The notes below the pieces were generated by a model. The model worked only from the letters and a program-made list of their open reading frames with translations, made no database searches and was not told the DNA's origin. Both the position numbers and the translations under genes were made by a program. A stretch of 64,000 bases of DNA, taken from Candidatus Woesearchaeota archaeon. GTDB lineage: Archaea; Nanobdellota; Nanobdellia; Woesearchaeales; 21-14-0-10-32-9. The DNA lies in the NCBI GenBank assembly GCA_021735165.1, contig JAIPHP010000002.1, positions 5,491-69,490 of the forward strand. The letters are read 5' to 3'. This document shows positions 3,457 to 48,124 of the stretch, in pieces (within the stretch, counting starts at the first letter, position 1; every line of letters starts with the position of its first letter).

Positions 3457-4461
3457 TTAAAGAAATGTGTTCCAGTAATTTTCAACAAATTCATTTGCAC
3501 TAAATTTTACTAGAGCAGAATATCCATCTATACTTGAAGAATTTAAGTCAAGAATATCTGCTTTTGATAATGCATCTAAATATTTTTTTCTGTTCTTTTT
3601 TCGTATGATTAAAGGAGGATAATTATTTTGTAACAAAATTATGTTTGCAAGCAACCTTCCTGTTCTTCCATTACCATCAAAAAAGGGATGTATTTTTTCA
3701 AACTTGTGATGAAATATTGTTGCTAAAACTAAAGGGTGCAATTTATTTTTATGCTCCCTGAGCCATTTTAGAAGAAGAGTCATGTCTGTTTTTACATATT
3801 GTGCCGGACTTGATTTAAATCGAGTTTTGGTAACTCTAATATCTTGTGTTCTATAACCTTTTCGCACATCAATTTTGTCAATCAAAAGCGAATGAACGTC
3901 TTGAATTACGTCATGAGTAAGGACGTTTGGAATTTTTTCATAATACTTAAAAAAAACCACTCTTGTATTTTGTAAATCATATACTTCTCTAAGAGTTCTA
4001 TCTTTAGGAGTTTTTTGATTGATTAGTAAATTTTCTGCTTCCTTTAGAGTTATTGTGTTTCCTTCTAAGGAAGTTGTATTATAAGAAAAAGAAACTACAA
4101 AATCATTAAGCAATTCATCTTTAGAATTAATATCTAATTTTTGAAAAACGTTGTTCCAGTGAAGTTTGCATGCTTCGACAACATTTAATGATTCATCCAA
4201 ATACTGATCTTTTTTTAATTTTTCTTTCTTTATTTTTTCTAAATAATGGTTCACTTCCAAGAATTTATGAATAGTTTTGTAGGTTTTTCTTATTTCTTTT
4301 TGATGAATTTGTGGAAGGAGAGCTAATTTTTCTTTGATTTTTGATGGATTATTTCCTAAGTATGCTATGTCTTTTGTTATTTGTTTTCCATTTTTTGTTA
4401 AAGAAGCTCTAAGATAATAATATTCTTTATTTCCTATGCTTTTTTTATAAATAAATACCAT
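3457..4461 (-). CDS. fic: Fic/DOC-family protein (AMPylase), class II, with an intrinsic inhibitory motif
   Basis: Canonical Fic motif HPFFDGNGRTGR. An upstream TTSLEGN sequence matches the [ST]xxxE[GN] inhibitory helix. Confidence 0.9.
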   Translation of the reverse strand: MVFIYKKSIGNKEYYYLRASLTKNGKQITKDIAYLGNNPSKIKEKLALLPQIHQKEIRKTYKTIHKFLEVNHYLEKIKKEKLKKDQYLDESLNVVEACKLHWNNVFQKLDINSKDELLNDFVVSFSYNTTSLEGNTITLKEAENLLINQKTPKDRTLREVYDLQNTRVVFFKYYEKIPNVLTHDVIQDVHSLLIDKIDVRKGYRTQDIRVTKTRFKSSPAQYVKTDMTLLLKWLREHKNKLHPLVLATIFHHKFEKIHPFFDGNGRTGRLLANIILLQNNYPPLIIRKKNRKKYLDALSKADILDLNSSSIDGYSALVKFSANEFVENYWNTFL

Positions 4462-4495
4462 CTTTAATCAAGTATAATGTCTAAATATATAAATC

Positions 4496-4533
4496 TTACC
4501 CTTTAAATAGACGAATATATAAATAAAGGGTAA
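4496..4533. promoter_or_regulatory. Perfect 10-bp inverted repeat with a TATA-containing loop; putative operator
   Basis: ttacccttta - 18-nt loop (aatagacgaatatataaa) - taaagggtaa. Confidence 0.4.
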
Positions 4534-4563
4534 TTTGGTATTTTTGAATTTAAAAAAATTTAA

Positions 4564-4607
4564 TTTTTACCCTTTGTATCAACTTATATAAAAATAAAGG
4601 GTAAAAA
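4564..4607. promoter_or_regulatory. Perfect 12-bp inverted repeat of the same half-site with a TATA-containing loop; putative operator
   Basis: tttttacccttt - 20-nt loop (gtatcaacttatataaaaat) - aaagggtaaaaa. Together with 4496-4533 this gives two TACCCTTT/AAAGGGTA palindromes between the divergent Fic and MNT genes. Confidence 0.4.
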
Positions 4608-4623
4608 TTATTGTTATGTGACT

Positions 4624-4669
4624 ATCTCCTCTCAGTGACCTGTCTTAACTCCACATCGCAGAGTCCATC
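4624..4669 (+). repeat. Cassette-boundary motif, copy B
   Basis: ctctcagtgacctgtcttaactccacatcgcagagtccatc lies between the divergently transcribed Fic and MNT genes. Confidence 0.8.
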
Positions 4670-4776
4670 AAAAGTTTCGCTTTTTGAACGCAATCTCCAG
4701 TAGGGCATGAAGCCCTACGACGAAGTCTGTTTTACCAAAACATTTATATATCAAATATGGATAATATTAACCAAAT

Positions 4777-5352
4777 ATGGATAATAAGCTAAAAATTATT
4801 TTATACTTAGCAAATAAAGGAGAAACATTTACTTTGCTAGATTTAAGTAAATCTATCAATATACCCTACGCATCTCTTCACAGAACTGTTGCTAAAATGC
4901 AAGACACAACAGAAATAGAAAGCAAAGGGAAATCTAAATTAATTAAGATTAAATGGAACGAAATTACGAAAGCATACTTGACAATAGCGTCCTACGAAGA
5001 AAAACTTGAATTCATAAAAAAGCACCACATAATAAAAAGAATTGAAGAAAAATCTAAAGATATAACTCTAATCTTTGGAAGTTATGCCAAAGAAACACAA
5101 AATAAAACTAGCGATGTTGATTTGATGATAATTAACAAAACTGGAGAAAAAACAGTAAGTTTCTCTGATTTAGAAATGCTTTACGATATAAAAATAAATC
5201 CTATGTTTTTTACAGAAAAAGAATTCATAGATATGTTGAAGGATAAAGAAGAAAATGTAGGAAAACAAGCACTAAAAGCTCATATTTTGCTATCGGGATT
5301 TTCAGATTTTTGGAGGCTAGTTGAAAATGGAATTTATAAAAGAAAAATATGA
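4777..5352 (+). CDS. Minimal nucleotidyltransferase (MNT) antitoxin with an N-terminal wHTH domain
   Basis: The GSYAKETQNKTSDVDLMII sequence carries the GS...DxD nucleotidyltransferase signature; an N-terminal winged-helix-like segment precedes it. The gene overlaps the downstream HEPN gene by 32 nt. Confidence 0.75.
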   Translation: MDNKLKIILYLANKGETFTLLDLSKSINIPYASLHRTVAKMQDTTEIESKGKSKLIKIKWNEITKAYLTIASYEEKLEFIKKHHIIKRIEEKSKDITLIFGSYAKETQNKTSDVDLMIINKTGEKTVSFSDLEMLYDIKINPMFFTEKEFIDMLKDKEENVGKQALKAHILLSGFSDFWRLVENGIYKRKI

Positions 5353-5842
5353 AGAAAAATTTAAAGAACTAAAAGGACAACACTTAATAGTTAAATCAAC
5401 ATCAACTTTCAAAATAAATCTATTCTTTAAAAAAGCAGAGGCAAGTTTACTAATCGCAATAAATCAAAGAAATCCATCTAAAACTCCAGAAAAAATCTAT
5501 TGGCTACAATGGTCGATAACAATTGCGTACTACGCAATGCTTTATGCAACAAAAGCAATACTTCTAAAAAAAGGCTACGAAGTAAAAACACACGAATCAG
5601 CGCAAATAGCGTTAGGACATTTATTAGTGCCTGATGAATTAGAAAAAGAAGACTTAGAAATACTAAATCAAACTCATAAAATATTCGAAGATGAATATGT
5701 AACATATTTTGAAGACGCAAGAAAAGAAAGTAGTACTGCAAGATACCAAGCAAGACCAAGCTACACAGAAAGAAGAGTAGATGAAATACTCTCAAATGCT
5801 AAGAAATTCATAAATAAGATAAGTGAGATAATAAAAGAATAG
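5321..5842 (+). CDS. HEPN-domain protein, the toxin partner of the MNT
   Basis: 173-aa all-helical ORF overlapping the MNT gene in the classic MNT-HEPN operon arrangement, with R/H-rich C-terminal helices. The Rx4-6H motif is not crisply resolved by eye. Confidence 0.55.
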   Translation: MKMEFIKEKYEEKFKELKGQHLIVKSTSTFKINLFFKKAEASLLIAINQRNPSKTPEKIYWLQWSITIAYYAMLYATKAILLKKGYEVKTHESAQIALGHLLVPDELEKEDLEILNQTHKIFEDEYVTYFEDARKESSTARYQARPSYTERRVDEILSNAKKFINKISEIIKE

Positions 5843-5952: not shown

Positions 5953-8900
5953 TTAAACTATGTAGAATTGTTGGTATGTGTAGTGGTATGGACTGTATGA
6001 GAAGGCGTATTCTTGTTTTAGTGTTATTTGAGGGTATTGTTGGGCGTTGATGAGTTCTTGAATTGAGCCTCTGTTGCTGTGTATTGTTGAGCTTGTTGGT
6101 ATTAGTAGAGAGGTGTAGCCTAGTTTTTTTACCATGGTTTTTGAGTATTGTATAATTTTTTTGTATAGGTTGTCTGGTGATACGCTTGCAAGGATACTTG
6201 ATGAGGGTTGTATTGATGCTATTAAATAAGTGTTTCCTTGTTCTTGTATGGTTCGATAGATTACTCCTCCGCACGCATTTTGTTCTTCGTCAAGTATTAT
6301 CATTAGCCACATATCTGGTTGATTCCATAGTTTGTCGTCTATTGCAACGCATACTCCGAAGTTGAACATTGCTACTGAGTGCATTTTGTGTTTGGTTAGT
6401 ATGAATTTGAAGGGTGTGCCTGTTAGGCTTCGTCCTTCTTTTTTGAATTCGAATTTTGTCATCTCTTTTTGCATATTTTCGTATTGTTCTCCATATAATT
6501 GATTAAATATTTGTTGTACTAGGCTTTTATCTATTATGTTTGAAGAGTTTTGTATTAGGAATTGGTTTATTTGATCTACGTCGATGTTTTCTGGCCAGTT
6601 AATCTCTTGGATGTTGAATCCTTTTGAGTTGATGATTTCTATGATTTTGTTTTCTTTGTTGTTCATGTTGGATTTCCAGATTCCAAAGAGTGTTTTTGCG
6701 AATTGTCTGTAATCTTTATTTGTGTTTGTTAGTACTAGGAATTCGTTTTTGTATTTTTCTTGTGCTTTTGATAACAAGGATAATATCAAGTCATTTCTTA
6801 GTCTGTCTCCTATGAATTCTTTGTATTTCATCAGCGTTTCATGTTCACTGCTAAAGCTTGGTAGTTGGTTTCCTAGTTGTATGTTGTAGGAGTATATGTA
6901 TTTTAGGTATTCTTTTTGTTTATTTCTCAGGTCTCCGTGTAGAAAGTCTGTTAGTATGTGCATTCCGGTTTCTGCTGGGTCTATATGTATTGGTTTTTGG
7001 TTGATTTCTGTTACTGCTTCTACAAGGTTGTTCCATGATTGAGTGTTTACTTCTTCTTTAAGTACAAAGCCTCCTTTAGATATTCTTACTGTTAAGCCGC
7101 TTAGTTTATTTAGCTCTCCAGGTATGTCACTTTGTCTGTCTTGCCTGTTTTGTATTGCTCGTTTATATTGTTGTCTATCTACAGTTACTTCTGGTGCAAA
7201 TACAGAGTATAAGGTGCCTAGAAGTATGTTTTCGTCATAATCCTTGGTCAAATTGCCATCTAAAATTTCTTTTTTTAATTGTTTTACATCTTTGAAAAGT
7301 TTTTCGTAGTGTATATGTTTATCTTCATGAGTTCCTATATAGATGTTTCTGAATTCTGTGTAGATTTCTAGTAGGTAAGCTGGACTGTTTTCAAGGAATT
7401 GTTTTATTATTTCTGCATCATGGCTTATTGGTTTTTGTATGATGTTTTGTTTCAATCCTTCAAGAATTAGGTTATGTAATATGTCTGGTGCTTTTCTTTG
7501 TTTTTTACTTGTAATCCATACTAATAGTTCCAGGTCTTTTTCGTTGTATACTCCTTCGTATTTGGCAATTCCTGAATAACACTCTATGCATATGAATGAA
7601 GCAGGTCCTTGTGATTCTACTGTAGGAATTATTAGTAATGGAAATGTCAATATTTTAAATCGATTAAAATACGGTAGTAGAAGCTCGAATTTACTGAAAT
7701 TTTCCCATTCCGCTCCTTTTGTTTTTTGTAAGATGTGTATAAAATATTCTGTTATTTTTGGTAGATTTTCTTCGTTGATCATATATTTAATTGTAGGCAA
7801 ACCCTCACAAAAGACCACTTTTGTATGTTCTTTTGAAGCTTTGACTATTTGTAATATGTGCGGGAGGGTTTTTTCATTGATTATTTCTTTTATTGAAGAC
7901 AAACCGTGCTTGAAGACGTGGTTTGTTTGATCTCCTGTTAATTTGACCATCTCTACTAAATATGGCAAAGTTTTTTCATTAAGTGCGGGTTTTATTTCGA
8001 GCAAACCATCATTAAAGAAACTGTGTGTTTCACTTCTTATGACCTTAGCTATTTCTACTAAATAGGCCAAAGTTTTTTCAGTAAGCACATCTTTTATTTC
8101 AAGCAAACCATAAAAGAAAAAACCGTTTTTTTCGTCTCCAGCGGCTTTAGATATTTCTGCTAAATAAAATAGTTTTTTTTCGTTAAGTATGTCTTTTATT
8201 TTATGCAAACCCCAATATTTTAAGAAATTAATTGAGTTGAATTTTAAGTATTTGATTAGTTCAGCTAGTGATAGTCCTATGGATAGTATGTTATTTTCGT
8301 TAATAATATTTTTTATTTCACGAAACCCAAACATAAGGACATGTTTTGATAACTCCCCTTCGGCTTTGAATAATTCTGATAGTTGTAGTCCTATAGATAG
8401 TACGTTATTTTGGTTGATTTTGAATTTTACATAATAAAAACTCTTGAGTACAGATTCTGCTTGGTCTCCTGAGACTTTGGCTATTTTTACTAGTTGTAGT
8501 CCTATTGATAGTAAGTTATTTTCGTTTAGTATATCTCTTATTTTAGACAAACCCTTTTCCAAGACTAAGAGCCTATAGTCTCCAGCGGCTTTTACTATTT
8601 TTATTATGTCGGGGAAAGTTTTTTCATTAAGAATATTTTCTATTTGATATGAACAAAAACTTATGACCTCTCCTGCTTGATCTCCCGAGGATTTTACTAG
8701 TTTTACCATGTCAGGCAAAGTATTTTCATTAAGAATATCTACCAGTTCAGGCAAATAATGTTTAAAAACAGATTCTGTTTGATCAACCCCCAAGGCTTTT
8801 ACTAGTTCTACTATGTAGGGCAAAGTTTTTTCATTTAATATCTCCCTTATATCAGGCAAATAAAATTCTAATACATGTGAGTGAATCCACAAGGATTTAG

Positions 8901-17899: not shown

Positions 17900-18778
17900 T
17901 TGGATATTGTTTTTATGGTTATTTTTGATGGTGTTTCGTTGATTGTTGTTTTTGCTTTAGTTATCGCAAGTATTGTAGATATTAGGATTAGAGAAGTTCC
18001 TGATGTTTTAAGTTATTGTTTATTTGCGTTTGGAATTATTCATTCTCTTTTTTTATCAGCTTATTTTTATGATTATATGTTTTTTGTTAGTGGTATCTTT
18101 GGTTTTTTGTTCGCATTAGTTTTTAGTTTATTGTTTTATTATACTGGTCAATGGGGCGGTGGAGATGCTAAATTATTGATGGCTTTAGGTTTTTTATTTG
18201 GTGTTGATTTATTTAGATTGAGATTTTTTGATAATTTTTTTATTTCTTTTTTTATTTCTATTTTTTTAGTTGGTGCGTTATGGGGTTTAATTTGGAGTTT
18301 TTTTCTTGTTTTTAAGAATTTCAAGGTTTTTTTGAGAGGCTATGCTAATTTTACTAAAAGTTCTAAGTTGTATTCTTTTAAGAATTGGTTTTTAGGAGCA
18401 TTCGTTTTTTTTATTTTAATAGTGTTTTTTTTAGGATTGGGTTTGTTTTTTAAGGTGATTTTATGGTCTTTACTTTTGTTTTGTATGTTGTATTTTTATC
18501 TGTATTTTTTTTCCAAGGTCGTGGAGAAGTATTGTATGGTTAAAAGAATTCCTGTGAATAGTCTTGTTGAAGGAGATTGGATTGTTGGTAAAGTTAAGTT
18601 AAAGAATGGTAAATTTTTTTCTTCTAGTAAAACGGGTTTGGAGAAGAAGGATATTTTTTTATTGAAAAAAAATGTTGATTTTGTCGATGTTAGAGAAGGC
18701 GTTCCTTTTGTTCCTAGTTTTTTGTTTGCTTATTTGATTTGTTTGTTTTTTGGAGCGTGGCTTAGTCTGTTTTTTTAG
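17900..18778 (+). CDS. Type IV prepilin/preflagellin peptidase (A24 family, FlaK/PibD-like)
   Basis: Polytopic membrane protein carrying the two catalytic Asp motifs: VDIRIREVPD and the GxGD-type GGGDAKLL. Confidence 0.7.
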   Translation: MDIVFMVIFDGVSLIVVFALVIASIVDIRIREVPDVLSYCLFAFGIIHSLFLSAYFYDYMFFVSGIFGFLFALVFSLLFYYTGQWGGGDAKLLMALGFLFGVDLFRLRFFDNFFISFFISIFLVGALWGLIWSFFLVFKNFKVFLRGYANFTKSSKLYSFKNWFLGAFVFFILIVFFLGLGLFFKVILWSLLLFCMLYFYLYFFSKVVEKYCMVKRIPVNSLVEGDWIVGKVKLKNGKFFSSSKTGLEKKDIFLLKKNVDFVDVREGVPFVPSFLFAYLICLFFGAWLSLFF

Positions 18779-26760: not shown

Positions 26761-28083
26761 TTAATTCATGCTTTCACTTCCTTTTTTGTATTTGATTAGT
26801 TTTTTATTTTTTGTTTTGTTTATGATTTTATCTGTAAGTTTCCAGCTTTCGTTTAGTTCTGTTGCTCTTATAAATAGTCTTTTTTCTCCTTTTATACATT
26901 CATCAATTATTGTTTCGTATGCTGTCGGCGTATTTCCTTTGAATTCACATGTAGGGCAAAAAAGCATTTGCACTGGTTTTAAGTCCGGAGTTTCTCCGGG
27001 CATTTTGGCATTTATTGTTAATGATATATTTTGCCTTGGTTGAATATCGATTCTTATCTTGTTGGGTGCAGTATTAAAGTCGCAGTATATTGTGCAGGGT
27101 TCTTTTTTGAATTCTAGTTCTATGTATGCTTCATCACTATTCATTTTTTTGCCTGTTTCTAATATTATTTGTGAGTTTTCCCATCTTTTACTTTTTGATT
27201 TAAAAAATATTTTTGAATACGTTTCTGTTTTTGTTTTTTTTCCTAATTTTTTTTCGACTTCTTCTTCATATCCTTCATATTGACCAAGGATGGCTTTTTC
27301 AAATTCGAGTTTTTTTATTGCTCTTGTTTTTTGGTATCTTATTTCGTCTGCATAAGTATTTTTTGGCGGGTCCATCAAGATTAATGAAGCTGTTTGTAAT
27401 AAATGATTTTGTATCATGTCTTTTATTGCTCCAGAACCATCATAGTATTCTAATCTCTGTTCAACGCCGTTAATTTCTTTTGAGACTATTTTTATTTTGT
27501 CTATGAATTTTGAATTCCATATGTTTTCAAAAAAAGGGTTTGATAATCTTAAGCGCAGTATGTTGTCTATTGTTTGTTTTGCCACGTAATGATCTACTTT
27601 GTATATTTGTTCTCTTGTGAAATATTTTTTCATTAGTTTGTTTAATTTTTCCCATGAATTATAATCTGAGCCAAAAGGTTTTTCTATCATCAGTTTTATA
27701 TTTTGATATTTACAGTCTTTTACTATATTGAATATTTTATCAAATAAATTATATGATGTAGCTAAATAATATATTGTCTGATCTGCTTTTTCTTTATGCA
27801 CAAATTCGTAGAATTTTTTCATTGAATTTTTATCAGATACATCCCCTTTGAAGTATTGTATTTTAAGGTTTTTGTTTTTTTTTGGTATGCTCAAATATTT
27901 TTCGTATTGTTGGTTGTCCAGATTTGTTCTTCCTACGCCTATGAGGTTTATTTTGTATTTTTTGTTTGTTGCTAAATTATTTAGTGCAGGAGCTAATTTT
28001 CTTTTTGTTAAATCTCCTGTTCCTCCAAATATTACTATGTTTATCATTTTTTCCACATATTCATTATTACTTGGATATCTCAT
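26761..28083 (-). CDS. zwf: Glucose-6-phosphate 1-dehydrogenase (bacterial Zwf type)
   Basis: IFGGTGDLTKRKLAPAL, IEKPFG, the substrate motif KVDHYVAKQTIDNIL and DMIQNHLLQ. Confidence 0.85.
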   Translation of the reverse strand: MRYPSNNEYVEKMINIVIFGGTGDLTKRKLAPALNNLATNKKYKINLIGVGRTNLDNQQYEKYLSIPKKNKNLKIQYFKGDVSDKNSMKKFYEFVHKEKADQTIYYLATSYNLFDKIFNIVKDCKYQNIKLMIEKPFGSDYNSWEKLNKLMKKYFTREQIYKVDHYVAKQTIDNILRLRLSNPFFENIWNSKFIDKIKIVSKEINGVEQRLEYYDGSGAIKDMIQNHLLQTASLILMDPPKNTYADEIRYQKTRAIKKLEFEKAILGQYEGYEEEVEKKLGKKTKTETYSKIFFKSKSKRWENSQIILETGKKMNSDEAYIELEFKKEPCTIYCDFNTAPNKIRIDIQPRQNISLTINAKMPGETPDLKPVQMLFCPTCEFKGNTPTAYETIIDECIKGEKRLFIRATELNESWKLTDKIINKTKNKKLIKYKKGSESMN

Positions 28084-28766
28084 TTTTGATCTGTTACGAT
28101 TATTGTGTTTTCTATTTCATCTAGTATTTGTTGCGGTATTGTTTTTTCTGTATTGTTAAGATATGATTTTAATGCTTGTTTTTTCTCTTTTCCTAAAAAA
28201 AGTACGAATGCTGTTTTTGTCATTGCTAATGCTCCAGGAACAATACTTATTCTTTTTTTGGGAAGCTTAGGAGAATCTTCAAAGTATTCGTATGCTTGTT
28301 TGTCAGTATATTCTTTTTCAGGAAATATTCCTGCTACGTGCCCATCTTCTCCACTGCTCAGAATTGCTATGTCTATTCTTCCTGCGAATTCTTCGAATTT
28401 TTTCGAGTAATCAAAAGCTGCTTTTTCTCCTGATAATTCCGTTTTTATTCTGTGAACATGTTTATTTTGTATCAAATTCTTGTTTAATAGCGGTTCTAGC
28501 AGTTTTTCTTTTATTGTTTTATAATTGCTTTCATTTGAAGTTATAGGTGCGTATCTTTCGTCTAATATGAAAAAATGACATTTCTGCCATGATTTAATAT
28601 TTTTTTTAGTTAATTCTTCGTACAGTTTTCCTGTGCTTGTTCCGCCAACCAAGCCTATGAATATTTTTTCTTGTTGATTGGCAAGAAATTCTATTTCATC
28701 TGTTATGAATGAAGCAGCGTGTTTTATGAGTTCTTCTCTTTTAGGATATTTTAGTAGTTTCATCAT
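28080..28766 (-). CDS. pgl: 6-phosphogluconolactonase
   Basis: GLVGGTSTGKLYE and SSGEDGHVAGIFP motifs. Confidence 0.75.
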   Translation of the reverse strand: MMKLLKYPKREELIKHAASFITDEIEFLANQQEKIFIGLVGGTSTGKLYEELTKKNIKSWQKCHFFILDERYAPITSNESNYKTIKEKLLEPLLNKNLIQNKHVHRIKTELSGEKAAFDYSKKFEEFAGRIDIAILSSGEDGHVAGIFPEKEYTDKQAYEYFEDSPKLPKKRISIVPGALAMTKTAFVLFLGKEKKQALKSYLNNTEKTIPQQILDEIENTIIVTDQK

Positions 28767-29680
28767 CTGTTCTCTTTCTTTTTTACTCCATGGCCCCCAA
28801 ATTCATCTCTTAGTACAGACACTATTTTTGTTGCAAAATTTTTTTTAGTTTCTGATTTTTCTCTTATTTCCAAACTTTTTTTTATTATGGGTATTTCCAC
28901 ATTATTTTTTTCTGCTTCTTCAACAGTCCATAGACCTTCTCCACTGTGAGGGATAAATCCATCCACGTCTTTCATTCCCGGATGATGTATGAATGCATCT
29001 CTAGCCCATTCCATTAAAGCCCCTCGTATTATGCTTCCGTTATTCCACAAGTCAGATAGTTTTTCCATGTCAAGTTCTTTGAATGGTCCTTCACTTATGA
29101 CGTGAAATCCTTCTCCTATAGCTTGCATCATTCCGTATTCTATTCCATTATGAATCATTTTTACATAATGCCCTGCACCGCTTGGACCAAAATAACCATA
29201 TCCCTTTGGTACGCACATAGCTTTTATTATTGGCTCTATTTTATTAAAGTCAATTTCAGCACCTCCGCACATCATACAATACCCTGTTTTTGCTGCTGCT
29301 AGACCTCCTGATACTCCCACATCAAAATATCGTATTCTTTTTTCTTGAAGTTCTTTTGAACGCCTTATTGTTTCTGTATACTTAGAATTTCCCCCATCTA
29401 TTAGTAAGTCTCCTTCTTCTAAATAAGGCACTATTTTGCTTTTTATTTCATCTACTGTTTTGTGAGGTGTCATCAACCAAATAATTCTTGGTTTTTCTAA
29501 ATTATTTACTAGTTCTTGATAACTCTTTGAAGGTATAGCTCCTTTTTCTTTACTTATTTTTTCTACTTTTTCAGGACTTCTATTATATACAACGACTTCA
29601 TGACCTTTTTCTAGAAGTTTTTCAACCATATTATAACCCATTTTCCCCAAACCCACGAATCCTATTTTCATTTCTTCCAC
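28763..29680 (-). CDS. gnd: 6-phosphogluconate dehydrogenase (decarboxylating), short YqeC-like form
   Basis: Rossmann motif IGFVGLGKMGYNM and a catalytic region GGNSKYTETIRR...GVSGG consistent with 6PGDH. Confidence 0.8.
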   Translation of the reverse strand: MEEMKIGFVGLGKMGYNMVEKLLEKGHEVVVYNRSPEKVEKISKEKGAIPSKSYQELVNNLEKPRIIWLMTPHKTVDEIKSKIVPYLEEGDLLIDGGNSKYTETIRRSKELQEKRIRYFDVGVSGGLAAAKTGYCMMCGGAEIDFNKIEPIIKAMCVPKGYGYFGPSGAGHYVKMIHNGIEYGMMQAIGEGFHVISEGPFKELDMEKLSDLWNNGSIIRGALMEWARDAFIHHPGMKDVDGFIPHSGEGLWTVEEAEKNNVEIPIIKKSLEIREKSETKKNFATKIVSVLRDEFGGHGVKKKENR

Positions 29681-32898: not shown

Positions 32899-35800
32899 TC
32901 AGTTAGAAGTTTCTAAAACTTCAAACTCCCAAGAATCTTCGATAAATACTTCATCGTATTGAAAACTTCCATAAACCCTGTATTTTCCAGGGGATTCCAC
33001 AGAAACATTTTTTAAATTCCATCCGTAATATTTTCCAATATCTAGTTTTATTAAATTATTTGCAGAAATATTTACTTTTTCATTTGTAACAATGCGAATA
33101 TTTCTCCAATGGTTTTCAATTTTATTCTGTAAAGCTAAAGTTAAGATTCCTCGTACATCAACATCTCCTGAATTAACTATTTTTGATTGAGGTCTTGGAT
33201 TTCCAAGGGGGACTGAGATATCTTCACAATTATAACAACCTGTATGTTGGGAATCGTGTTGATACATTGGCCAGTCCATTTCTACATCCCTAAAAGGAGA
33301 ATCTAAATTAAAAACCTGAATAAAAGTTTTACGAATGTTCCAATTTACAGAACTAGATATTAATTCATTAAAATTATCTCCTTCAAGATCAAAAACAGAA
33401 TACATACTGATTTCTGGATAAACAATTTTCTTTTCAATAGAGCTGTCTGAGAAATTTGATAAATAAATAAGACTTAAACCTCTAAAAGTAAAATATTTTC
33501 CTATAAACCCATAAATATTGTTCTCAATTTTTCCAAAAAGAACGGGAACTGATTTTACTGGTTCTCCTCCAGAAAAAACAACATTTCCATTTCTATCTAA
33601 GATATAGTTCCAAAAACCTTTTTTTATAGAAATGTTAAGATAATCTCTTTGCTTAAATAAAGAAAGACTTGAAAGATGTCCTGAAGAAACAAATTGAGGC
33701 CAACCTGTTTTTATAGACCCATTTTCTTCGAGGACATAAACTCCATTTCCAAAAACGTTTGGGCGATTCATTTTATTAGTATAAAAAATTATTTCATCAT
33801 ATCCATCTGAATCAACATCACCTATAACTCCAGGTTCAAGAGCAAAACCATTTACATTAACAGGAAATCCTTCAACTAGAGAGCCATCAAAATTAAAAGC
33901 AAAAATTCTTCCCTCGCAATGCCAATTTTCTAGAGTAAACACTCCTTCGTCAAAAACATTTCTTGTTGAAGGCACAACAACCTCGTATTCTGGATCATCG
34001 TCTAAATTAGCAATAAGAGAGCTTGTCTCATATCCGCCAAGTATACCGCAAGAGAAAGAACCATTACCAAACTGTTTATTATACACAATTTTTGGCCATC
34101 CTGGAAGAAAATTTCCATCTAAGTCAAGAACTGCCAATCTCAAAGCGCTTTCTGGAACTCCTTCAAATTCAAAAGAATCATAAACTTTGAGTATTTCAAT
34201 ATTTCCATCTCCATTAAGATCTTTTAAAACAATTAAACTGTTTGGCTGAGAAGAAATCTCTAAAGGAATCTTTCTAATAAGGCTCCCAGATAAATCATAG
34301 ACAAATAAATTATAAATTCCATTTACGACAATTTCTTTCAAACCATCATTATTAAAATCTATAACTGAGGGGGGGCCTATATTTCCTCCCGGAAGTCCAC
34401 CGTTAGATCCTGGAGGGCTATATACATCAACCTCGATTGGAAAGCCTTCTAAACGAGAGCCATCTTCTTTAAATGCATAGACTTTTAGAGGATTTCCCGC
34501 GTAATAAAACAAAATTTCTTTAGATCCATCTCCTTCCAAATCTTCTATAACTGGTTCAACTTTTCCAGGCCAGTAATAAAAATCAAAATTTTGCTCTGTA
34601 TTATCAAGAACTCTAAAATCTTCTGTAGTTGATGTTACTTCCAAATTATTTTCAGAGGATTTGATAAAAACACTCTCATTTCCAAAAGTGTAAAAGGAAA
34701 AAGAATTTCTATTATTGTTAGGGATAAAAGATAAAAAAGTTTTATCTTTAAAAAGCATAAGAGAATCCTGTGAATTTCCTCCAAAAGTTCCTCCTTGCCA
34801 ATCTAATTCTTTCGGCCAGCCTTCTTTCAAAGAAGAGCTAATAAATAGAATAGGGGTGCTTTCGGTAAAGGTTTCTCCAAAAAAATTAAAATTAAAATTA
34901 ATTATATAAAAACCCTCCTGATCTAGAAGAGATGTGTCCCAAGAAAAAAAAGTTTTATTTATTTGAGTTATTCCTACTGCATTTATAATTTGTGAGTTGT
35001 CCATTGAAAATACTTCGAAAGAAGATAATTCGTAATAGGGATTTAAAATGTTAAGAAAAATTGGAATAGTCTCCCCGAACCTATAAACTCCAGGCTCTTT
35101 AGGAGAAATTATTTCAAGGTTGTTTATGGAAAAAATATTCATATCATTAGAAACAATTTGATTTTCTTTGTAAATATTAATCTGTAAAGAATAGTCTCCA
35201 TCCATAAGACGGGTAGTATCAAATTCAGGACATAAAACTCCTTCAATAATCTCTTCTGTTCCCTCACAGATTAATTTTGGTCCACTCAAAGAAGATTCTT
35301 TAGAATAAGTGACTTTGTAGGAATCAAAATTTCCCTTTGCAGTACCTCTAACTTCCAAAATTCCTTCCGAAAAATAGGGAAATTGATCTAAAAAAGCTAA
35401 TGCGCTTTCATCATTTGTATTTAAAAGAGATTCAAAAATATCAATTCTTCCACTACCTTGAATTGTTCTTATTTGATTCAAAGAAACAGCATTATTTCTT
35501 AAAGAGCCTTTCATGTCGAAAGCATTCCAAGTAGGATGTGCTTGTTTTAACAAAGCAACTGCTCCAGAAATAATTGGAGTAGCCATAGAAGTCCCTGCTA
35601 ATTGGACATGATCTTCATCTAAGCAGGGATAATAATATTCGTTTTCTCCTGGAGGAAATATAGAATCATATCTTGCAGCACAAATAATTGCTCCAGGAGC
35701 AACGATATCGGGTTTTATTAACGCCATAATGTTTCCTTCTTCATTTTCCCAAAGAACAGGGCCTCTAGAACTAAAAGAAGTTACCTGATCTACACGAGGA

Positions 35801-37140
35801 TTAAAATCCCAGTAACTTCCATCATAATTTTTCTTATACGTTGCACCAACTGTTATTGCTTTCCTTGCATTTCCAGGACTCATAATGCTTCGTTCATTTG
35901 GACCAGAATTTCCTGAAGCTATGACTGCAACGACTCCTGCATCTACCACATTATCAATTGCAGAACTCATTGGATCATCTGGATTGCCAGAACCTCCCAA
36001 ACTTAAACTAATAACATCCAATTTATCTGAAAAGTCTCCATCTTCATTAGGATCTAAACTTCTTTCAATTGCAGAGATAACATTTCCTAAAGAACCCCCT
36101 CCTAATGAATTCAAAACTTTGTATGCATAAATTTTTGCATCAGGAGCAACACCTTTCAAAACCCCATTTCCAGCAGCAGTTGAAGCAACATGTGTTCCGT
36201 GACCCTGATCATCTATTGGATCTCCATCATCGTTTACAAAATCATAACCCCCAACAACTTTTTCACAAGTTTCGTCTAAAAATTCTTCTGTCGTACAACT
36301 TCCTAAATCTCTGTGAGTATAATCCACTCCTGTATCAATTATCCCAATAATTACATCTTTACCTGTCAAACAATTTTCTTCTTCCAAACAAGGATTAAGA
36401 TTCTCATCTAGTTCCCAAACATCGTCAGCATTGATTAAGGGGATAGAATCCATTAAAAAGGCTGTTACTTCGTAATCAGGATAGATTCTTTTCACACCTT
36501 CAATATTTTTTATTTCTTGAATTTCTGAAGGTAAAAGATCTAAACTTATTCCATTAAACACTTTTGTATAACTTGATTTTATTTCATTATTTGTTTTTTG
36601 CAAAATTTCTGATTTTGTTTGTTCATGTTTTTCTTCCAAATCTAATTTGTAATTTTCTAATCTATCCTCAATGTTTTCTTCTAAAAAAGAATTTTCATTT
36701 TCTTTTGCAAGTTTTTTTAATCTAGAGTATTCTTTAGCCAAAGGTTCTTCTTCAAATTCAACAATATATCCGGAATATTTTGGAGTTTCAAAATCAGAAA
36801 CAGAATCTCCTGTTAAACCTTTCTCCGGAGGGTCTGTTAATTTTATTTGTTCTCCAACAGAGTAAAAATCTTTTAAAGTTGCAAGAGAGATTTTTAGAGT
36901 TTCTGATGTTGCGTATTCATGGTTTTGTGTATTTGTTGGGTTTGTGGCTTGATTTGTTTGTTGTTGATTGTTTTGCTGCGTGTCTTCTTGTTCGAATTCT
37001 ATGTCCATGTTTTGCATTTCTAAGTATTGTGTTGTGCAACTAGTTAGAATAAGAATTGTCAATACAAGTAATGCAGTTATTATTTTGCTTTTATTTGTTT
37101 GTTTTCCTTTCATTTTCCTGCTTGGATTGCAGTTATACAA
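32899..37140 (-). CDS. Large secreted or surface subtilisin-like (S8) serine protease with FG-GAP/beta-propeller repeats
   Basis: Asp/His/Ser triad motifs IGIIDTGVDYTHRDLG, HGTHVASTAAG and GTSMATPIISGAVALL. Multiple DxDxDG/FG-GAP-like repeats are present (DVDSDGYDEIIF, DFNNDGLKEIVV, DLNGDGNIEIL). The N-terminal signal peptide ends in the lipobox-like LTSC. Confidence 0.85.
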   Translation of the reverse strand: MYNCNPSRKMKGKQTNKSKIITALLVLTILILTSCTTQYLEMQNMDIEFEQEDTQQNNQQQTNQATNPTNTQNHEYATSETLKISLATLKDFYSVGEQIKLTDPPEKGLTGDSVSDFETPKYSGYIVEFEEEPLAKEYSRLKKLAKENENSFLEENIEDRLENYKLDLEEKHEQTKSEILQKTNNEIKSSYTKVFNGISLDLLPSEIQEIKNIEGVKRIYPDYEVTAFLMDSIPLINADDVWELDENLNPCLEEENCLTGKDVIIGIIDTGVDYTHRDLGSCTTEEFLDETCEKVVGGYDFVNDDGDPIDDQGHGTHVASTAAGNGVLKGVAPDAKIYAYKVLNSLGGGSLGNVISAIERSLDPNEDGDFSDKLDVISLSLGGSGNPDDPMSSAIDNVVDAGVVAVIASGNSGPNERSIMSPGNARKAITVGATYKKNYDGSYWDFNPRVDQVTSFSSRGPVLWENEEGNIMALIKPDIVAPGAIICAARYDSIFPPGENEYYYPCLDEDHVQLAGTSMATPIISGAVALLKQAHPTWNAFDMKGSLRNNAVSLNQIRTIQGSGRIDIFESLLNTNDESALAFLDQFPYFSEGILEVRGTAKGNFDSYKVTYSKESSLSGPKLICEGTEEIIEGVLCPEFDTTRLMDGDYSLQINIYKENQIVSNDMNIFSINNLEIISPKEPGVYRFGETIPIFLNILNPYYELSSFEVFSMDNSQIINAVGITQINKTFFSWDTSLLDQEGFYIINFNFNFFGETFTESTPILFISSSLKEGWPKELDWQGGTFGGNSQDSLMLFKDKTFLSFIPNNNRNSFSFYTFGNESVFIKSSENNLEVTSTTEDFRVLDNTEQNFDFYYWPGKVEPVIEDLEGDGSKEILFYYAGNPLKVYAFKEDGSRLEGFPIEVDVYSPPGSNGGLPGGNIGPPSVIDFNNDGLKEIVVNGIYNLFVYDLSGSLIRKIPLEISSQPNSLIVLKDLNGDGNIEILKVYDSFEFEGVPESALRLAVLDLDGNFLPGWPKIVYNKQFGNGSFSCGILGGYETSSLIANLDDDPEYEVVVPSTRNVFDEGVFTLENWHCEGRIFAFNFDGSLVEGFPVNVNGFALEPGVIGDVDSDGYDEIIFYTNKMNRPNVFGNGVYVLEENGSIKTGWPQFVSSGHLSSLSLFKQRDYLNISIKKGFWNYILDRNGNVVFSGGEPVKSVPVLFGKIENNIYGFIGKYFTFRGLSLIYLSNFSDSSIEKKIVYPEISMYSVFDLEGDNFNELISSSVNWNIRKTFIQVFNLDSPFRDVEMDWPMYQHDSQHTGCYNCEDISVPLGNPRPQSKIVNSGDVDVRGILTLALQNKIENHWRNIRIVTNEKVNISANNLIKLDIGKYYGWNLKNVSVESPGKYRVYGSFQYDEVFIEDSWEFEVLETSN

Positions 37141-37988
37141 ACAACATTTATTATGTCGTCTACTTTGCAGCCTCTGCTTAAATCATTGACTGGTTTGTTC
37201 AGTCCTTGACTTATTGGACCTATTGCTTTATATCCTGCTAGTCTTTCCACTAACTTGTACGCTATGTTTCCAGAATTTAAGTCTGGAAAAATTAGTATTG
37301 TTGAGTTCCCTCTTATTTCAGAATTCGGATTTTTTTGTTTTGCTATCATTGGTTCTATTGCTGCATCTACTTGTATTTCTCCATCTATAGGTATTTCTTT
37401 ATGGTTTTTTTTAGTAATTTGCACGGCTTTTTTTATTTTTTCTAAACAGGGATGTTTTGCAGATCCTTTCGTGCTGAATGAAAGAAATGCTACTCTTGGA
37501 ATAATATTTAGTTGTTTTGCTGATCTTATAGTTTCTGTTGCTATTTCTGCTAGCATTTCTTCATCAGGGTCTATATTTAACGCGCAATCTGTGAATAAAA
37601 ATGATTTTTTTTCTTCTGCCATCAAAAAATATGTGGATGCTTTTTTGTTTTTTTTTCCTATTATTTTAAATGCTGTTTTGTAAAGTTCCGCTGTTGTAAT
37701 TGTTGCCCCACCTACTAATCCGTCTGCTTTTTCTTGTTTTAGTAATTTTAGTCCTTCTTCTATTCCTTTTGCTTGTATTACTTTTACTTTTTCTAAGTTT
37801 ATTTGGTGTATTCTTGCTTTTCTTTCTATGTTTGCTTTGTCCCCAGTCAATATTATGTTTGCTAAATTCATATCCGTTATTTTTTTTGCTGCTTCCAGTA
37901 TTCTTTGGTCATTGCCTTCTGGCAGAATTATTGTTTTTTGAAGTTTTTTAGCTTTTTCTCTTAATTCTTGTATTATTCTTGGTTCCAT
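37110..37988 (-). CDS. pta: Phosphate acetyltransferase (phosphotransacetylase)
   Basis: Close match along the whole length to short-form Pta: FTDCALNIDPD, PRVAFLSFSTKGSAKHP and GPISQGLNKPVNDLSRGC. Confidence 0.85.
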   Translation of the reverse strand: MEPRIIQELREKAKKLQKTIILPEGNDQRILEAAKKITDMNLANIILTGDKANIERKARIHQINLEKVKVIQAKGIEEGLKLLKQEKADGLVGGATITTAELYKTAFKIIGKKNKKASTYFLMAEEKKSFLFTDCALNIDPDEEMLAEIATETIRSAKQLNIIPRVAFLSFSTKGSAKHPCLEKIKKAVQITKKNHKEIPIDGEIQVDAAIEPMIAKQKNPNSEIRGNSTILIFPDLNSGNIAYKLVERLAGYKAIGPISQGLNKPVNDLSRGCKVDDIINVVCITAIQAGK

Positions 37989-38203: not shown

Positions 38204-38324
38204 TGCGGGGGAAGGGATTCGAACCCTCGAACACACTAAGTGACAGGATGTCTCATACACGTATGAGTGTCATTTTTGGTGAAGCTTAAGTCCTGCGCAT
38301 TTGACCAGGCTTTGCTACCCCCGC
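38204..38324 (-). tRNA. tRNA-Leu(UAA) with a ~35-nt intron
   Basis: The reverse complement gives GCGGGGG-TA-GCAAAGCCTGGTCAAATGC-G-CAGGA-CTTAAG-[intron]-A-TCCTG, then a long variable arm, then GAGGG-TTCGAAT-CCCTT-CCCCCGC-A. Confidence 0.75.
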
Positions 38325-38900: not shown

Positions 38901-40139
38901 TTATTCTGTCAGTAGCGTTTTTATGTCTATTTCTTTGAATAGTTCATAATATTTTTTTACTTTTGGTATGTATTTTCTTGTTTCTTCTGGCAAGTATCCT
39001 GTTTTTAAGTATCTATTTCTGTTTGTTTGTCCTGCGTTGTAATCTATTAGTGCTAGAGTGAATAGTTCGTCTTCGCTGTATCCCTTTCCTTTAAGTTCTT
39101 CATATGAATTTTTAATGTGCATTATTCCTCCTTCCAAGTTTTGATTTATGTCATGTCGATCTACACCTAGTTTTTCTGCTGTGCTTTTTAATAACTGTCT
39201 TAGACCGTATGCTCCCATCCAGGATGTTGCTGTTGGGTTGAACATTGATTCTGTTGCAATTATTGCCATTTCTTTTGCTGGGTCTGTATCGTATTTTTCA
39301 CACAAGTTTAAGAAGTTTGTCGGTTTGAGGACTTTTTTTGCACGATTTAATATTTTTTCAGTAAGTGTTAGTTTTTCATAGTTTCCAGATATTATTTGTT
39401 TTGCTTCTATGAGCGAGTATCCGTTTTCTATTAGATTTTTCTTTTTTATATATTCATATATTGTTTCCTCGGGGTTTTTGTGTTTTTGATTCAAGAATTT
39501 TCTTAGGATTTTTAGCCTACTTTCGAATTGGTCTTTGTTTGTTGCTAAGTATTTTAGTTCTTTTTCATTAAAATCTCTTGTCATTCTTAGTTTGTTTATT
39601 ATTTCTATTTGCTTGAATTGTTTTTTTTCTTTTTTTGTTATTTTTGTTGTTTTATTTCCTGATTTTATTTCTATATATTTGTTAATTGTGTTTTCTAAAT
39701 AGTATTCTTTTAGTATATTGTTTATTTTTGATTCTTCATCTATTTTTCTTATGAATTTGTTTATGTCTTTTTTGAATTCTCTGATGCTTTTGGCTTTTTC
39801 GTTTTTATCGTAGATTATGTTTTGTATTTTATCTTTTATTTCTAGTATTGCATTTTCATCTTTGTAAATTATTGTGCTTAATGATTTTCTTAATGATTTT
39901 TTTAGTTCTTTTATGTTGTCTTGATCTAGTCTGTCGTCCAAGTATTTGTAGTATGTGTTTGTTATTTTCTTTGCTAATTTATCAGGGTTTGTGCTTTTGT
40001 ATGTTTGTACTGGTAGTTGTTTAGCGTTTGCTTCTTGAGGCGTTGTTTGTGTTATTGTTGTTGAGGATATTGGTGTTGTTGCTAGTATTATGCTTAGAAT
40101 TGCTTCATTTAATTTAATCATAATATGGGTTGCAACCAT
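38901..40139 (-). CDS. Lytic transglycosylase (SLT) domain protein, secreted or membrane-anchored
   Basis: C-terminal SLT motifs AIIATESMFNPTATSWMGAYGLRQL and ALIDYNAG. A long lysine-rich region precedes them, and the N-terminus has a hydrophobic anchor. Confidence 0.7.
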   Translation of the reverse strand: MVATHIMIKLNEAILSIILATTPISSTTITQTTPQEANAKQLPVQTYKSTNPDKLAKKITNTYYKYLDDRLDQDNIKELKKSLRKSLSTIIYKDENAILEIKDKIQNIIYDKNEKAKSIREFKKDINKFIRKIDEESKINNILKEYYLENTINKYIEIKSGNKTTKITKKEKKQFKQIEIINKLRMTRDFNEKELKYLATNKDQFESRLKILRKFLNQKHKNPEETIYEYIKKKNLIENGYSLIEAKQIISGNYEKLTLTEKILNRAKKVLKPTNFLNLCEKYDTDPAKEMAIIATESMFNPTATSWMGAYGLRQLLKSTAEKLGVDRHDINQNLEGGIMHIKNSYEELKGKGYSEDELFTLALIDYNAGQTNRNRYLKTGYLPEETRKYIPKVKKYYELFKEIDIKTLLTE

Positions 40140-40318
40140 TCATTTAAATATTTATCACTTATTAGTAAGTAAAATATCGATTATTTTCAAAAGATTTATA
40201 AATAATGCTTGTTTTCAGACAAATATAAGAGAAAAGAAGCGCATCGGCATGAACGAGATGTCGACTTTGGAAGAACGAATTCCATGGAAAAAAGATTTCT
40301 TTTCAAGAGGTTAAAAAA

Positions 40319-42054: not shown

Positions 42055-42163
42055 AGCCTCCGGCGAGAATTGAACTCGCGACCTCTACCTTTTTGCTAGC
42101 TGCGTTCAGATATCCTGGCCGCTGCCGTACCAAGGTAGCGCTCTACCGCTGAGCTACGGAGGC
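42055..42163 (-). tRNA. tRNA-Thr(GGU) with a ~37-nt intron
   Basis: The reverse complement gives GCCTCCG-TA-GCTC-AGCGGTA-GAGC-G-CTACC-TTGGTA-[intron]-A-GGTAG-AGGTC-GCGAG-TTCAATT-CTCGC-CGGAGGC-T. Confidence 0.7.
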
Positions 42164-43083: not shown

Positions 43084-43189
43084 GGGCCCGTAGCTTAGCC
43101 TGGTTGGAGCGCTGGTCTTATATGACTACGTTTCACGCGAATAGCTCGAAGAGAGCCAGTGGTCGGGAGTTCAAATCTCCCCGGGCCCA
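43084..43189 (+). tRNA. tRNA-Ile(UAU) (probable) with a ~31-nt intron
   Basis: GGGCCCG acceptor; D-arm GCTT/GAGC; anticodon stem CTGGT with loop CTTATA, then an intron (43123-43153), then A-GCCAG; T-arm GGGAG-TTCAAAT-CTCCC. Anticodon TAT sits at 43119-43121, assuming the canonical intron position. Confidence 0.55.
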
Positions 43190-46372: not shown

Positions 46373-48124
46373 ATGTTCAAATTCTTAAAACAAAAACTAA
46401 ATGGCGTAGTAAAAAAATTCAGTAAAGAAGTAGAAGCAGAAGCAGAAGAGAAAAAAATAGATGAACTTACAGAAGAAGAAAAACAAGAATTAAATAAAGA
46501 AGATATTGAAAAAGAAAAAACGACTGAAACAAAAAAAGAAGAACTCAAAAAAGAAACCGAAAAAAAACAAGAAGATGAAGAAAATAAAAAAAATAAAGAA
46601 GAATTCGAATCAAACAAACAAACACATAAACCAAAAAAAGAAGAAAATGTTGACCTATTAGAGAGGGATGTAGCGCTTAAAAAAGAAGCAGAAGAAATAA
46701 CGACAGAAAAACCAAAGAGCAAACAAAATCTACAAGAAATTGCTCAAAAAACAAAAGAAAAAGAATCAAAAAAAATTGAACACCGAGTTGAAAAAGAAGA
46801 TATAAAAAAATATGAAGACTCAATAAAACCTGAAGAATCTAAAAATCAGGAAAACTTAAAGGAAATAGAAGAAACAGAAGAATTTGATGAAATCGAAGAG
46901 GACAATAAGAAAAACGAAGAAAAAAAGAGTTTCTTTTCAAAATTATTCAAAAGAAAAACAAAAGAAGAACAAAAAATAGACGAACTTGCAGAAGAAGAAA
47001 AACAAGAATTAAATAAAGAAGATATCGAAAAAGAAAAAACGACTGAAACAAAAAAAGAAGAACTCAAAAAAGAAACCGAAAAAAAACAAGAAGATGAAGA
47101 AAATAAAAAAAATAAAGAAGAATTAACAAAAATCTCAGAAGATAAAAAAGAAAAAAACATTCAAAAAACCGCAGAAAAAAAAGAAGAACCAGAAACAAAA
47201 AATCAGGACTTAATAATAGAAGAAATAAAAAAAGAAAAAAAATCATTCTTTTCAAAAGTATCAGATACATTCACAAAAGTACAACTAAGCGAAGAAAAAT
47301 TCGAAGAACTATTCTGGGAACTAGAATTAACACTACTAGAAAATAACGTGGCATTACAAGTAATAGATCTAATAAAAAAAGATCTCAAAGAAGAACTGAC
47401 AACGGGAAAACTATCAAGAAAAAACGTGTCTGAAATAATACAAGACACCTTAAAAAAAACATTAGACAAAGTGCTTACTGTATATCAAATAAACCTAGAA
47501 GAAGATATAAAAAAATCAAAAGCAGAAGGAAACCCATACATAATATCTGTAATAGGCATAAATGGTGCTGGAAAAACAACCGCAATAGCAAAACTAACAA
47601 ACAAACTAAAAAAAGAAGGATTTTCAATAGTATGGGCTGCAGCAGACACATTCAGAGCAGCAGCAATACAGCAATTAGAAGAACACGCAAACAAATTAGA
47701 AATAAAACTAATAAAACACGACTATGAATCAGACCCTGCAGCTGTAGCATTCGACGCAATAAAACACGCAAAAGCCAAAAAAATAGACGTTGTAATGATA
47801 GACACTGCAGGAAGAATGCATTCAAATGATAATTTAATGCAAGAGCTAAAAAAACTAATTCGTGTAAACCCTCCAAACCTTAAAATTTACGTCGGAGAAT
47901 CAATAACTGGAAATGACTGTGTAGAACAAGCAAAAATATACGATGCACAAATAGGTATTGATGCAATAATATTAACAAAAGCAGATACTGATGAAAAAGG
48001 CGGAGCAGCAATATCTATAAGTCATGTTACAGGAAAACCAATATTGTTTCTAGGAACAGGACAAAAATACGAAGATTTAGAAACATTTGATAAAGAAAAA
48101 ATTCTTGAAAGTTTGGGATTATAA
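46373..48124 (+). CDS. ftsY: Signal recognition particle receptor FtsY with a long acidic K/E-rich N-terminal domain
   Basis: NG domain motifs GINGAGKTTAIAKL, DTAGR and TKADTDEKGG, preceded by a ~280-aa KE-rich region that contains an internal direct repeat. Confidence 0.9.
   Translation: MFKFLKQKLNGVVKKFSKEVEAEAEEKKIDELTEEEKQELNKEDIEKEKTTETKKEELKKETEKKQEDEENKKNKEEFESNKQTHKPKKEENVDLLERDVALKKEAEEITTEKPKSKQNLQEIAQKTKEKESKKIEHRVEKEDIKKYEDSIKPEESKNQENLKEIEETEEFDEIEEDNKKNEEKKSFFSKLFKRKTKEEQKIDELAEEEKQELNKEDIEKEKTTETKKEELKKETEKKQEDEENKKNKEELTKISEDKKEKNIQKTAEKKEEPETKNQDLIIEEIKKEKKSFFSKVSDTFTKVQLSEEKFEELFWELELTLLENNVALQVIDLIKKDLKEELTTGKLSRKNVSEIIQDTLKKTLDKVLTVYQINLEEDIKKSKAEGNPYIISVIGINGAGKTTAIAKLTNKLKKEGFSIVWAAADTFRAAAIQQLEEHANKLEIKLIKHDYESDPAAVAFDAIKHAKAKKIDVVMIDTAGRMHSNDNLMQELKKLIRVNPPNLKIYVGESITGNDCVEQAKIYDAQIGIDAIILTKADTDEKGGAAISISHVTGKPILFLGTGQKYEDLETFDKEKILESLGL
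46457..46605 (+). repeat. Intragenic direct repeat in ftsY, copy 1 (~149 bp)
   Basis: Nearly identical (3 mismatches) to 46976-47124. It encodes IDELTEEEKQELNKEDIEKEKTTETKKEELKKETEKKQEDEENKKNKEE. Confidence 0.85.
46976..47124 (+). repeat. Intragenic direct repeat in ftsY, copy 2
   Basis: See copy 1. It is in frame and 519 bp downstream. Confidence 0.85.

Follow-up and report, generated by a model that had tools for sequence, protein, structure and literature searches.

The 64,000-nucleotide (nt) stretch of DNA analysed here, called the window below, comes from a Candidatus Woesearchaeota archaeon (contig JAIPHP010000002.1, positions 5,491 to 69,490). It carries a gene for a 412-amino-acid (aa) protein with a C-terminal SLT domain, which an earlier note made from the sequence alone had described as a secreted lytic transglycosylase encoded by an archaeon (Table 1). 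A TGA codon lies directly 5' of the first ATG, so the open reading frame (ORF) cannot extend upstream. The identical protein is already in NCBI nr in a 406-aa form that starts at Met7 (ATG at 40121), on a 73-kb contig labelled Candidatus Woesearchaeota. The TTTAAA hexamer upstream of the first ATG was flagged by a bacterial-type scan, and such flagging is no evidence in itself. If it were used as a TATA box, transcription would begin near Met7 and the mRNA would be leaderless, consistent with the NCBI call. By tblastn, the window holds no second SLT copy.

The SLT domain matches Pfam SLT (PF01464) over aa 281-380 (E 1.3e-14; 54.2 bits against a gathering cut-off of 21.3; profile positions 8-107 of 117), and no other Pfam family has a significant match in the protein. 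All four motifs of the family-1 lytic transglycosylases are present, namely I (ATESMFNPTATS), II (GAYGLRQL), III (LIDYNAG) and IV (LPEETRKYIPKV), corresponding to the patterns ATES...S, GLxQ, YNAG and ET..Y..V. The AIIATESMFNPTATSWMGAYGLRQL...ALIDYNAG sequence with its ES glutamate, the basis of the earlier assignment, is found as described. The best matches in a PDB sequence search are Pseudomonas aeruginosa MltF chains, where ATESMFNP of the query falls on YQESLWQP of MltF, ES over ES. The partial NCBIfam matches, to MltF, a Borrelia flagellar lytic transglycosylase, MltC, Slt and MltD, cover only the catalytic part and are all far below the equivalog cut-offs. E297, S298, A310, G312 and G370 do not vary among the 76 aligned homologues. 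The query also has A304, S306, G309, L313, Q315, L316, T320, A321, N334, G337, G338, Y367, N368, T387 and Y390, each at least 90% conserved in this alignment, and the motif residues G312, L313, Q315, Y367, N368, G370, E386, T387 and Y390 are all present. Position 317 is Leu in the query and Met in 69 of the 76. The profile search and the conserved glutamate confirm, at the level of sequence, that the ORF encodes an SLT/GEWL-fold (GH23) family-1 lytic transglycosylase domain protein with a catalytic Glu.

An AlphaFold2 (AF2) model was built from the 76-sequence alignment and has a mean predicted local distance difference test score (pLDDT) of 83. Across residues 276-412 the pLDDT is 95-98, and the modelled domain has a lysozyme-like, all-alpha catalytic fold. 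All 50 matches listed by Foldseek against the PDB are lytic transglycosylases (LtgA, MltF, Slt, MltE, MltD, MltC).

The N-terminal hydrophobic stretch noted earlier does exist, but its core (AILSIILATTPIS) has only about 13 residues (best 19-residue Kyte-Doolittle mean 1.57). This is too short for a normal membrane-spanning helix, and the segment resembles the h-region of a Sec signal peptide more than the anchor it had been taken for. Both "secreted" and "anchor" are readings of this weak segment, and export of the protein seems likely. AF2 places a low-pLDDT helix at residues 3-18, and residues 1-42 are below 50. In the relatives P0003 and P0066 the aligned N-terminus looks more clearly like a signal. 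The Thr/Ser/Pro/Gln-rich segment that follows is probably a flexible spacer, judging from the model. The next region had been called a long lysine-rich linker. It is lysine-rich (19.5% Lys over aa 52-271), but it is predicted to fold into ordered helices (pLDDT about 84-90) and is not a floppy tether. Searches of structure libraries with the helical N-region gave generic helical matches only, and the region may act as a stalk or wall-contact module.

Table 1. Coordinates of the SLT gene, its parts and other features of the window
Feature	Position	Strand	Basis or remarks
Complete coding sequence of the SLT-domain protein (412 aa + stop)	38901..40139	-	ORF translation
Short hydrophobic N-terminus MVATHIMIKLNEAILSIIL..., aa 1-19, candidate Sec signal peptide or weak signal anchor	40083..40139	-	Kyte-Doolittle scan, AF2
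Thr/Ser/Pro/Gln-rich segment TTPISSTTITQTTPQEANAKQLPVQ..., aa 20-50, predicted disordered	39990..40082	-	pLDDT, composition
Lys-rich, all-alpha-helical region, aa 51-275	39315..39989	-	AF2, composition; no Pfam family, almost no detectable homologues
SLT / GH23 family-1 lytic transglycosylase domain, aa 276-412	38904..39314	-	Pfam, NCBIfam, PDB search, alignment, AF2, Foldseek
Codon of Glu297, predicted single catalytic acid/base (ES motif)	39249..39251	-	Alignment, MltF match
TTTAAA, possible archaeal TATA box	40143..40148	-	4-9 nt 5' of first ATG, read from sequence
153-aa ORF with N-terminal transmembrane segment	38398-38859	-	41 nt downstream of SLT gene; also in Logan contig
Phosphate acetyltransferase (pta)	37110-37988	-	PTA_PTB, E 4e-94; overlaps subtilase gene start
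1413-aa subtilase	32899-37140	-	About 1.8 kb downstream of SLT gene
A24 prepilin peptidase (GGGDAKLL motif)	17900-18778	+	Pfam E 9e-13; 21 kb from SLT gene
Pilin-like ORF, class III signal MMKQKKRGQ/AAIEFL, Cys-rich C-terminus	59109-59756	-	19 kb from SLT gene
tRNA gene with presumed intron	2130-2261	+	Rfam
tRNA gene with presumed intron	38204-38324	-	Rfam
tRNA gene with presumed intron	42055-42163	-	Rfam
tRNA gene with presumed intron	43084-43189	+	Rfam
Fic/DOC-domain protein, then nucleotidyltransferase and HEPN pair	3457-5842		
1170-aa protein with tandem helical repeats	5953-9465	-	Repeats by eye
Three oxidative pentose-phosphate genes	26761-29680	-	
FtsY/SRP-receptor homologue	46373-48124	+	

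The claim that the protein is archaeon-encoded is borne out by the window as a whole. Rfam finds seven tRNAs, four of which are presumed to contain introns since they are long (106-132 nt) and were missed by ARAGORN; tRNA introns are an archaeal hallmark. The window also encodes eIF-6, ScpA, an OB+DHH RecJ/GAN-like protein, Elp3, archaeal Nre, TFE-alpha, Kae1, ZPR1, SepF and several archaeal-type tRNA synthetases. The tRNAs, eIF-6, Nre, TFE-alpha, Kae1, the RecJ/GAN-like protein and the NCBI Woesearchaeota label confirm that the DNA is archaeal. The whole window has a G+C content of about 30%, and the SLT gene (GC 0.287; GC at third codon positions, GC3, 0.240) has the same composition as the surrounding housekeeping genes. 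An independent Logan assembly has the same three-gene arrangement around it. Recent horizontal transfer and contamination were rejected on the matching composition and the Logan contig, and the SLT gene is a long-resident part of the archaeal genome.

An exhaustive HMMER search over 1.84 billion cluster representatives returns 11,368 proteins at E <=1e-3, 260 at 1e-10 and only the query itself at 1e-30. The best non-self match, P0002, has 32% identity, and the best cellular SLT domains have 40-49% identity over the domain. The SLT domain is common, but the full-length protein is nearly an orphan. Wherever an origin can be assigned to the matches with the longest alignments, it is archaeal. P0008 carries a Woesearchaeota label and P0024 a Parvarchaeota label; P0066 adjoins fibrillarin, Nop5 and eIF-5A, and P0002 adjoins PurP-type and MJ0538-family genes. 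P0002 (locus L004 1796-2953) has no signal-like N-terminus, and its SLT gene begins where an upstream 597-aa ORF (3-1796) ends, which could mean translational coupling or a single larger protein of which both are parts. Giant SLT proteins of 1844-3675 aa (taxon unlabelled) are also among the matches.

A conserved N-terminal domain in a DPANN subfamily was suggested by two alignments but is not claimed here, as phmmer with aa 43-275 finds only P0002 at a marginal 15.9 bits. In a word-index homologue search the full-length query found only itself, the Lys-rich region having saturated the candidates, and the C-terminal domain alone found nothing; the subfamily alignment found eight proteins, two of them its own members. 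A single-protein locus scan of species-representative genomes, a set that does not include the source genome, gave only one weak Cloacimonadota SLT match.

The SLT gene is surrounded by a divergent GAN/RecJ-like gene, the 153-aa membrane ORF, an intron-containing tRNA, pta and the 1413-aa subtilase gene. The 153-aa ORF has no homologues and no Pfam or PHROG match, and is possibly co-transcribed with the SLT gene. It shows no homology to the ORF that follows the SLT gene in P0003, which rules out a conserved downstream partner gene. Bacterial-type Pta enzymes are seldom found in archaea, which usually have ADP-forming acetyl-CoA synthetase instead. The subtilase is encoded on the same strand as the SLT protein and has a signal/lipobox-like N-terminus (...LTILILTSC) and an S8 subtilase domain, along with an I9 propeptide and FG-GAP repeats. 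Possibly this is a further large hydrolase that works outside the cell; together with the SLT protein it would fit a lifestyle in which the envelopes of other cells are degraded.

Further from the SLT gene, three adjacent genes encode glucose-6-phosphate dehydrogenase, 6-phosphogluconolactonase and 6-phosphogluconate dehydrogenase. This oxidative pentose-phosphate branch is typically bacterial or eukaryotic and uncommon in archaea, and the genes may be another bacterial-type acquisition in this DPANN genome. The 1170-aa protein has no Pfam match, and tandem helical repeats of about 35-40 aa (...I(L/I)NEKTLPxxVxxVKxxGDQ...) can be seen in its first half. The Fic/DOC-domain gene is followed by an overlapping nucleotidyltransferase and HEPN pair that resembles an MNT-HEPN-type toxin-antitoxin module. 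The FtsY/SRP-receptor homologue has a Lys/Glu-rich N-terminal extension of about 380 aa with a long internal duplication, in which ...IDELTEEEKQELNKEDIEKEKTTETKKEELKKETEKKQEDEENKKNKEE... occurs twice.

Taken as a whole, the protein is probably an exported, compact GH23 lytic transglycosylase that cuts the bacterial peptidoglycan of another organism. Since the archaeon itself does not make murein, the substrate has to be that of another organism, and bacterial peptidoglycan, the target favoured in the earlier note and in the DPANN literature alike, is the most plausible one. The SLT domain is of bacterial type, was taken up long ago and has since become fully adapted to the genome that hosts it. 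The hydrophobic N-terminus of the protein would send it out through the Sec pathway, and the Thr/Ser/Pro-rich spacer and the helical region, which is lineage-specific and about 220 aa long, would display the C-terminal catalytic domain extracellularly. There the domain would bind a glycan strand of bacterial peptidoglycan, and Glu297, as single acid/base, would cleave the beta-1,4 bond between N-acetylmuramic acid (MurNAc) and N-acetylglucosamine (GlcNAc) and release 1,6-anhydroMurNAc products. The owner of the wall may be a bacterial host, prey or neighbour, or the substrate may be bacterial wall debris.

Several observations weigh against this explanation. The export signal is weak, as a Glu lies inside the hydrophobic stretch just before its core and the first 40 aa have a net charge of 0. 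Two motif positions are altered, with R314 (GLMQ to GLRQ) replacing the Met of 64 of the 76 aligned sequences and I365-D366 (AAYNAG to IDYNAG) replacing Ala-Ala, where Ala is found in 62-66 of the 76. These non-catalytic changes in motifs II and III could alter substrate binding. Pfam finds no LysM, SPOR, PG_binding or other recognised peptidoglycan-binding module in the protein, and scans of the larger ORFs in the window find no muropeptide-salvage genes. The cited literature reports no enzyme assay of a DPANN SLT protein and identifies no bacterial partner, and none is known for this archaeon.

The same fold and substrate would also suit a hydrolytic muramidase, like goose-type lysozyme, which releases reducing MurNAc ends. 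This is unlikely, as the four motifs all follow the family-1 lytic transglycosylase pattern and structure searches also rank lytic transglycosylases highest, although sequence alone cannot settle the chemistry. The altered positions could instead reflect retargeting of the SLT domain to a non-murein glycan such as chitin or chito-oligosaccharides, an exopolysaccharide or an archaeal surface glycan. Such a shift is quite improbable, since the residues invariant across murein-active relatives are all kept and both sequence and structure searches give murein lytic transglycosylases, not chitinases, as best matches. A pseudomurein-like glycan, the other target named in the earlier note, would imply a methanogen host (Methanobacteriales or Methanopyrales), and the SLT fold does bind GlcNAc-containing glycans. 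Pseudomurein has beta-1,3 links and N-acetyl-L-talosaminuronic acid with a C6 carboxylate. On established chemistry this makes the intramolecular C6-OH attack that defines lytic transglycosylation impossible and allows no 1,6-anhydro product. Known pseudomurein lysins, PeiW and PeiP, are endoisopeptidases, and the query matches only SLT in Pfam. Many DPANN archaea are episymbionts of other archaea (Castelle et al. 2021), but archaeal peptidoglycan hydrolases are almost absent from pseudomurein-producing clades (Strock et al. 2025), and a pseudomurein target is very improbable.

A role in a pilus or secretion apparatus directed at a partner cell had been raised because the window encodes a type IV pilin-like protein and a prepilin peptidase; the SLT protein would then resemble VirB1, EtgA or FlgJ-type enzymes. 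Both genes are indeed there, the pilin-like one with a class III signal (KKRGQ/AAIEFL) and the peptidase of type A24, and a flagellar-assembly lytic transglycosylase family of NCBIfam is matched in part (37 bits; cut-off 234). Gene order largely refutes the link. The two pilus-related genes lie on opposite sides of the SLT gene, about 40 kb apart, with dozens of unrelated genes between, among them housekeeping genes for tRNA synthetases and the pentose-phosphate pathway, and Pfam scans of the larger ORFs in the window detect neither a pilus ATPase nor a platform protein. In the five closest archaeal relatives the SLT gene lies in five different contexts with no conserved synteny, and in none of the five is it beside pilus genes. 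Prepilin peptidases and pilins occur in most archaeal genomes, so their co-presence within 64 kb is uninformative, and a dedicated pilus role is hardly credible.

It may be asked whether the gene is an artefact, either a bacterial or phage fragment mis-binned or mis-assembled in an archaeal metagenome-assembled genome (MAG), or a decaying pseudogene. By far the most SLT proteins are those of bacteria or phages, and only a few dozen of the HMMER matches were checked for origin, the named ones being a bacterial and DPANN mix. Against this, the gene is contig-internal, with an intron-containing tRNA and pta on one side and the archaeal RecJ/GAN-like gene on the other; its arrangement recurs in the Logan contig and its composition matches its neighbours. 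The ORF is intact with every catalytic motif kept, and the closest relatives are likewise in archaeal contexts. An artefact can be all but dismissed.

Since archaea lack murein, a murein cutter in a tiny, metabolically poor DPANN archaeon is indirect evidence of contact with bacteria, through attachment, parasitism, predation or scavenging. It is also conceivable, if doubtful, that the compact protein, with its weak export signal, its Thr-rich spacer, its orphan helical region and an SLT domain whose motifs II and III differ at side positions, represents a distinct DPANN device. The helical region would then serve as a stalk or for recognition of the partner and would position the cutter on the wall of a specific bacterial host or, less likely, the domain would have been retargeted to a non-murein glycan. 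The device reading, if true, would mark a Woesearchaeote living on bacteria, not on archaea. Either version would give a concrete molecular handle on DPANN-bacteria cross-domain symbiosis, which is so far a matter of genomic inference only.

The novelty implied by the earlier note does not hold, as the protein is already annotated in NCBI and DPANN SLT genes have been in the literature since 2013. Lytic transglycosylases in DPANN archaea are known from work of 2013-2015, developed in 2021-2022. Early mentions are those of Rinke 2013 and Castelle 2015, as cited in Castelle et al. 2021. The latter describe fam00969, murein-like lytic transglycosylases of Woesearchaeota and Pacearchaeota. Vigneron et al. 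2022 describe lytic murein transglycosylases of family GH23 from five Woesearchaeota MAGs and from public genomes, and propose a "vampiristic" lifestyle. In both studies the DPANN SLT proteins are predicted to be extracellular and proposed to bind and degrade bacterial cell walls. The observation is repeated in a 2024 mBio survey of oxygen-deficient zones and a 2024 ISME J paper. Strock et al. 2025 cite the Woesearchaeota transglycosylases and show by experiment that other archaeal peptidoglycan hydrolases (PGHs) kill bacteria.

The bacterial family-1 enzymes are MltF (1E), MltC (1B), Slt70/LtgA (1A), MltE (1C) and MltD (1D), and the SLT protein is an orthologue of neither MltF nor any other of these named enzymes, as judged by sequence. 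MltF has an ABC-type, solute-binding-like module that Pfam does not find here, and the match to the MltF equivalog NF008112 reaches 39.4 bits against a cut-off of 354 over the catalytic part only. The U/L superhelix of Slt70 is not in the model of the SLT protein, and outside the catalytic domain the root-mean-square deviation of the superposed structures exceeds 20 Å. The accessory LysM domains and lipobox of the bacterial enzymes are also absent. Since its host lacks murein, the SLT protein cannot hold their housekeeping role in wall remodelling. The pilus, secretion and flagellar lytic transglycosylases (VirB1, EtgA, FlgJ-type) differ in that they are encoded inside the cluster of their apparatus.

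SLT modules of phages include PHROG 2013 ("lytic tail protein"), the SPbeta-like yomI/tape-measure proteins and PRD1 P7. The PHROG 2013 match has a lower E (7.8e-19) than the Pfam SLT match and reaches upstream to aa 160. SPbeta-like phages match by tblastn over aa 188-398 with 29-36% identity, and the structural matches in BFVD are LT_GEWL phage proteins. A phage origin or prophage context was rejected as a specific claim, since phage identity is below that of the cellular SLT domains and the neighbours are housekeeping genes.

Among archaea, Halogranum salarium exports bacterial-origin enzymes that cleave bacterial peptidoglycan, Woldo and Danwoldo (Strock et al. 2025), a parallel to the role proposed for the SLT protein, and the GH25 muramidase of Aciduliprofundum is also validated (Metcalf et al. 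2014, as cited in Strock et al. 2025). These validated enzymes are M23 zoocin-like, glucosaminidase or GH25, and have recognised peptidoglycan-binding domains and clear Tat or Sec signals, whereas the SLT protein is GH23/SLT and has a weak signal and no such domain. Strock et al. 2025 define a "modular PGH" as a catalytic domain with a recognised peptidoglycan-binding domain, and the SLT protein falls outside that definition. With the DPANN proteins of Castelle et al. 2021 it shares the phylum-level lineage, the SLT/GH23 domain, the predicted extracellular location and the proposed role. Those proteins are described as large (up to about 3000 aa), whereas the protein described here has a single catalytic domain and a lineage-specific helical N-region in 412 aa. 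The protein and its annotation are on record in NCBI, and it is one more example of a DPANN SLT protein, fairly divergent and compact.
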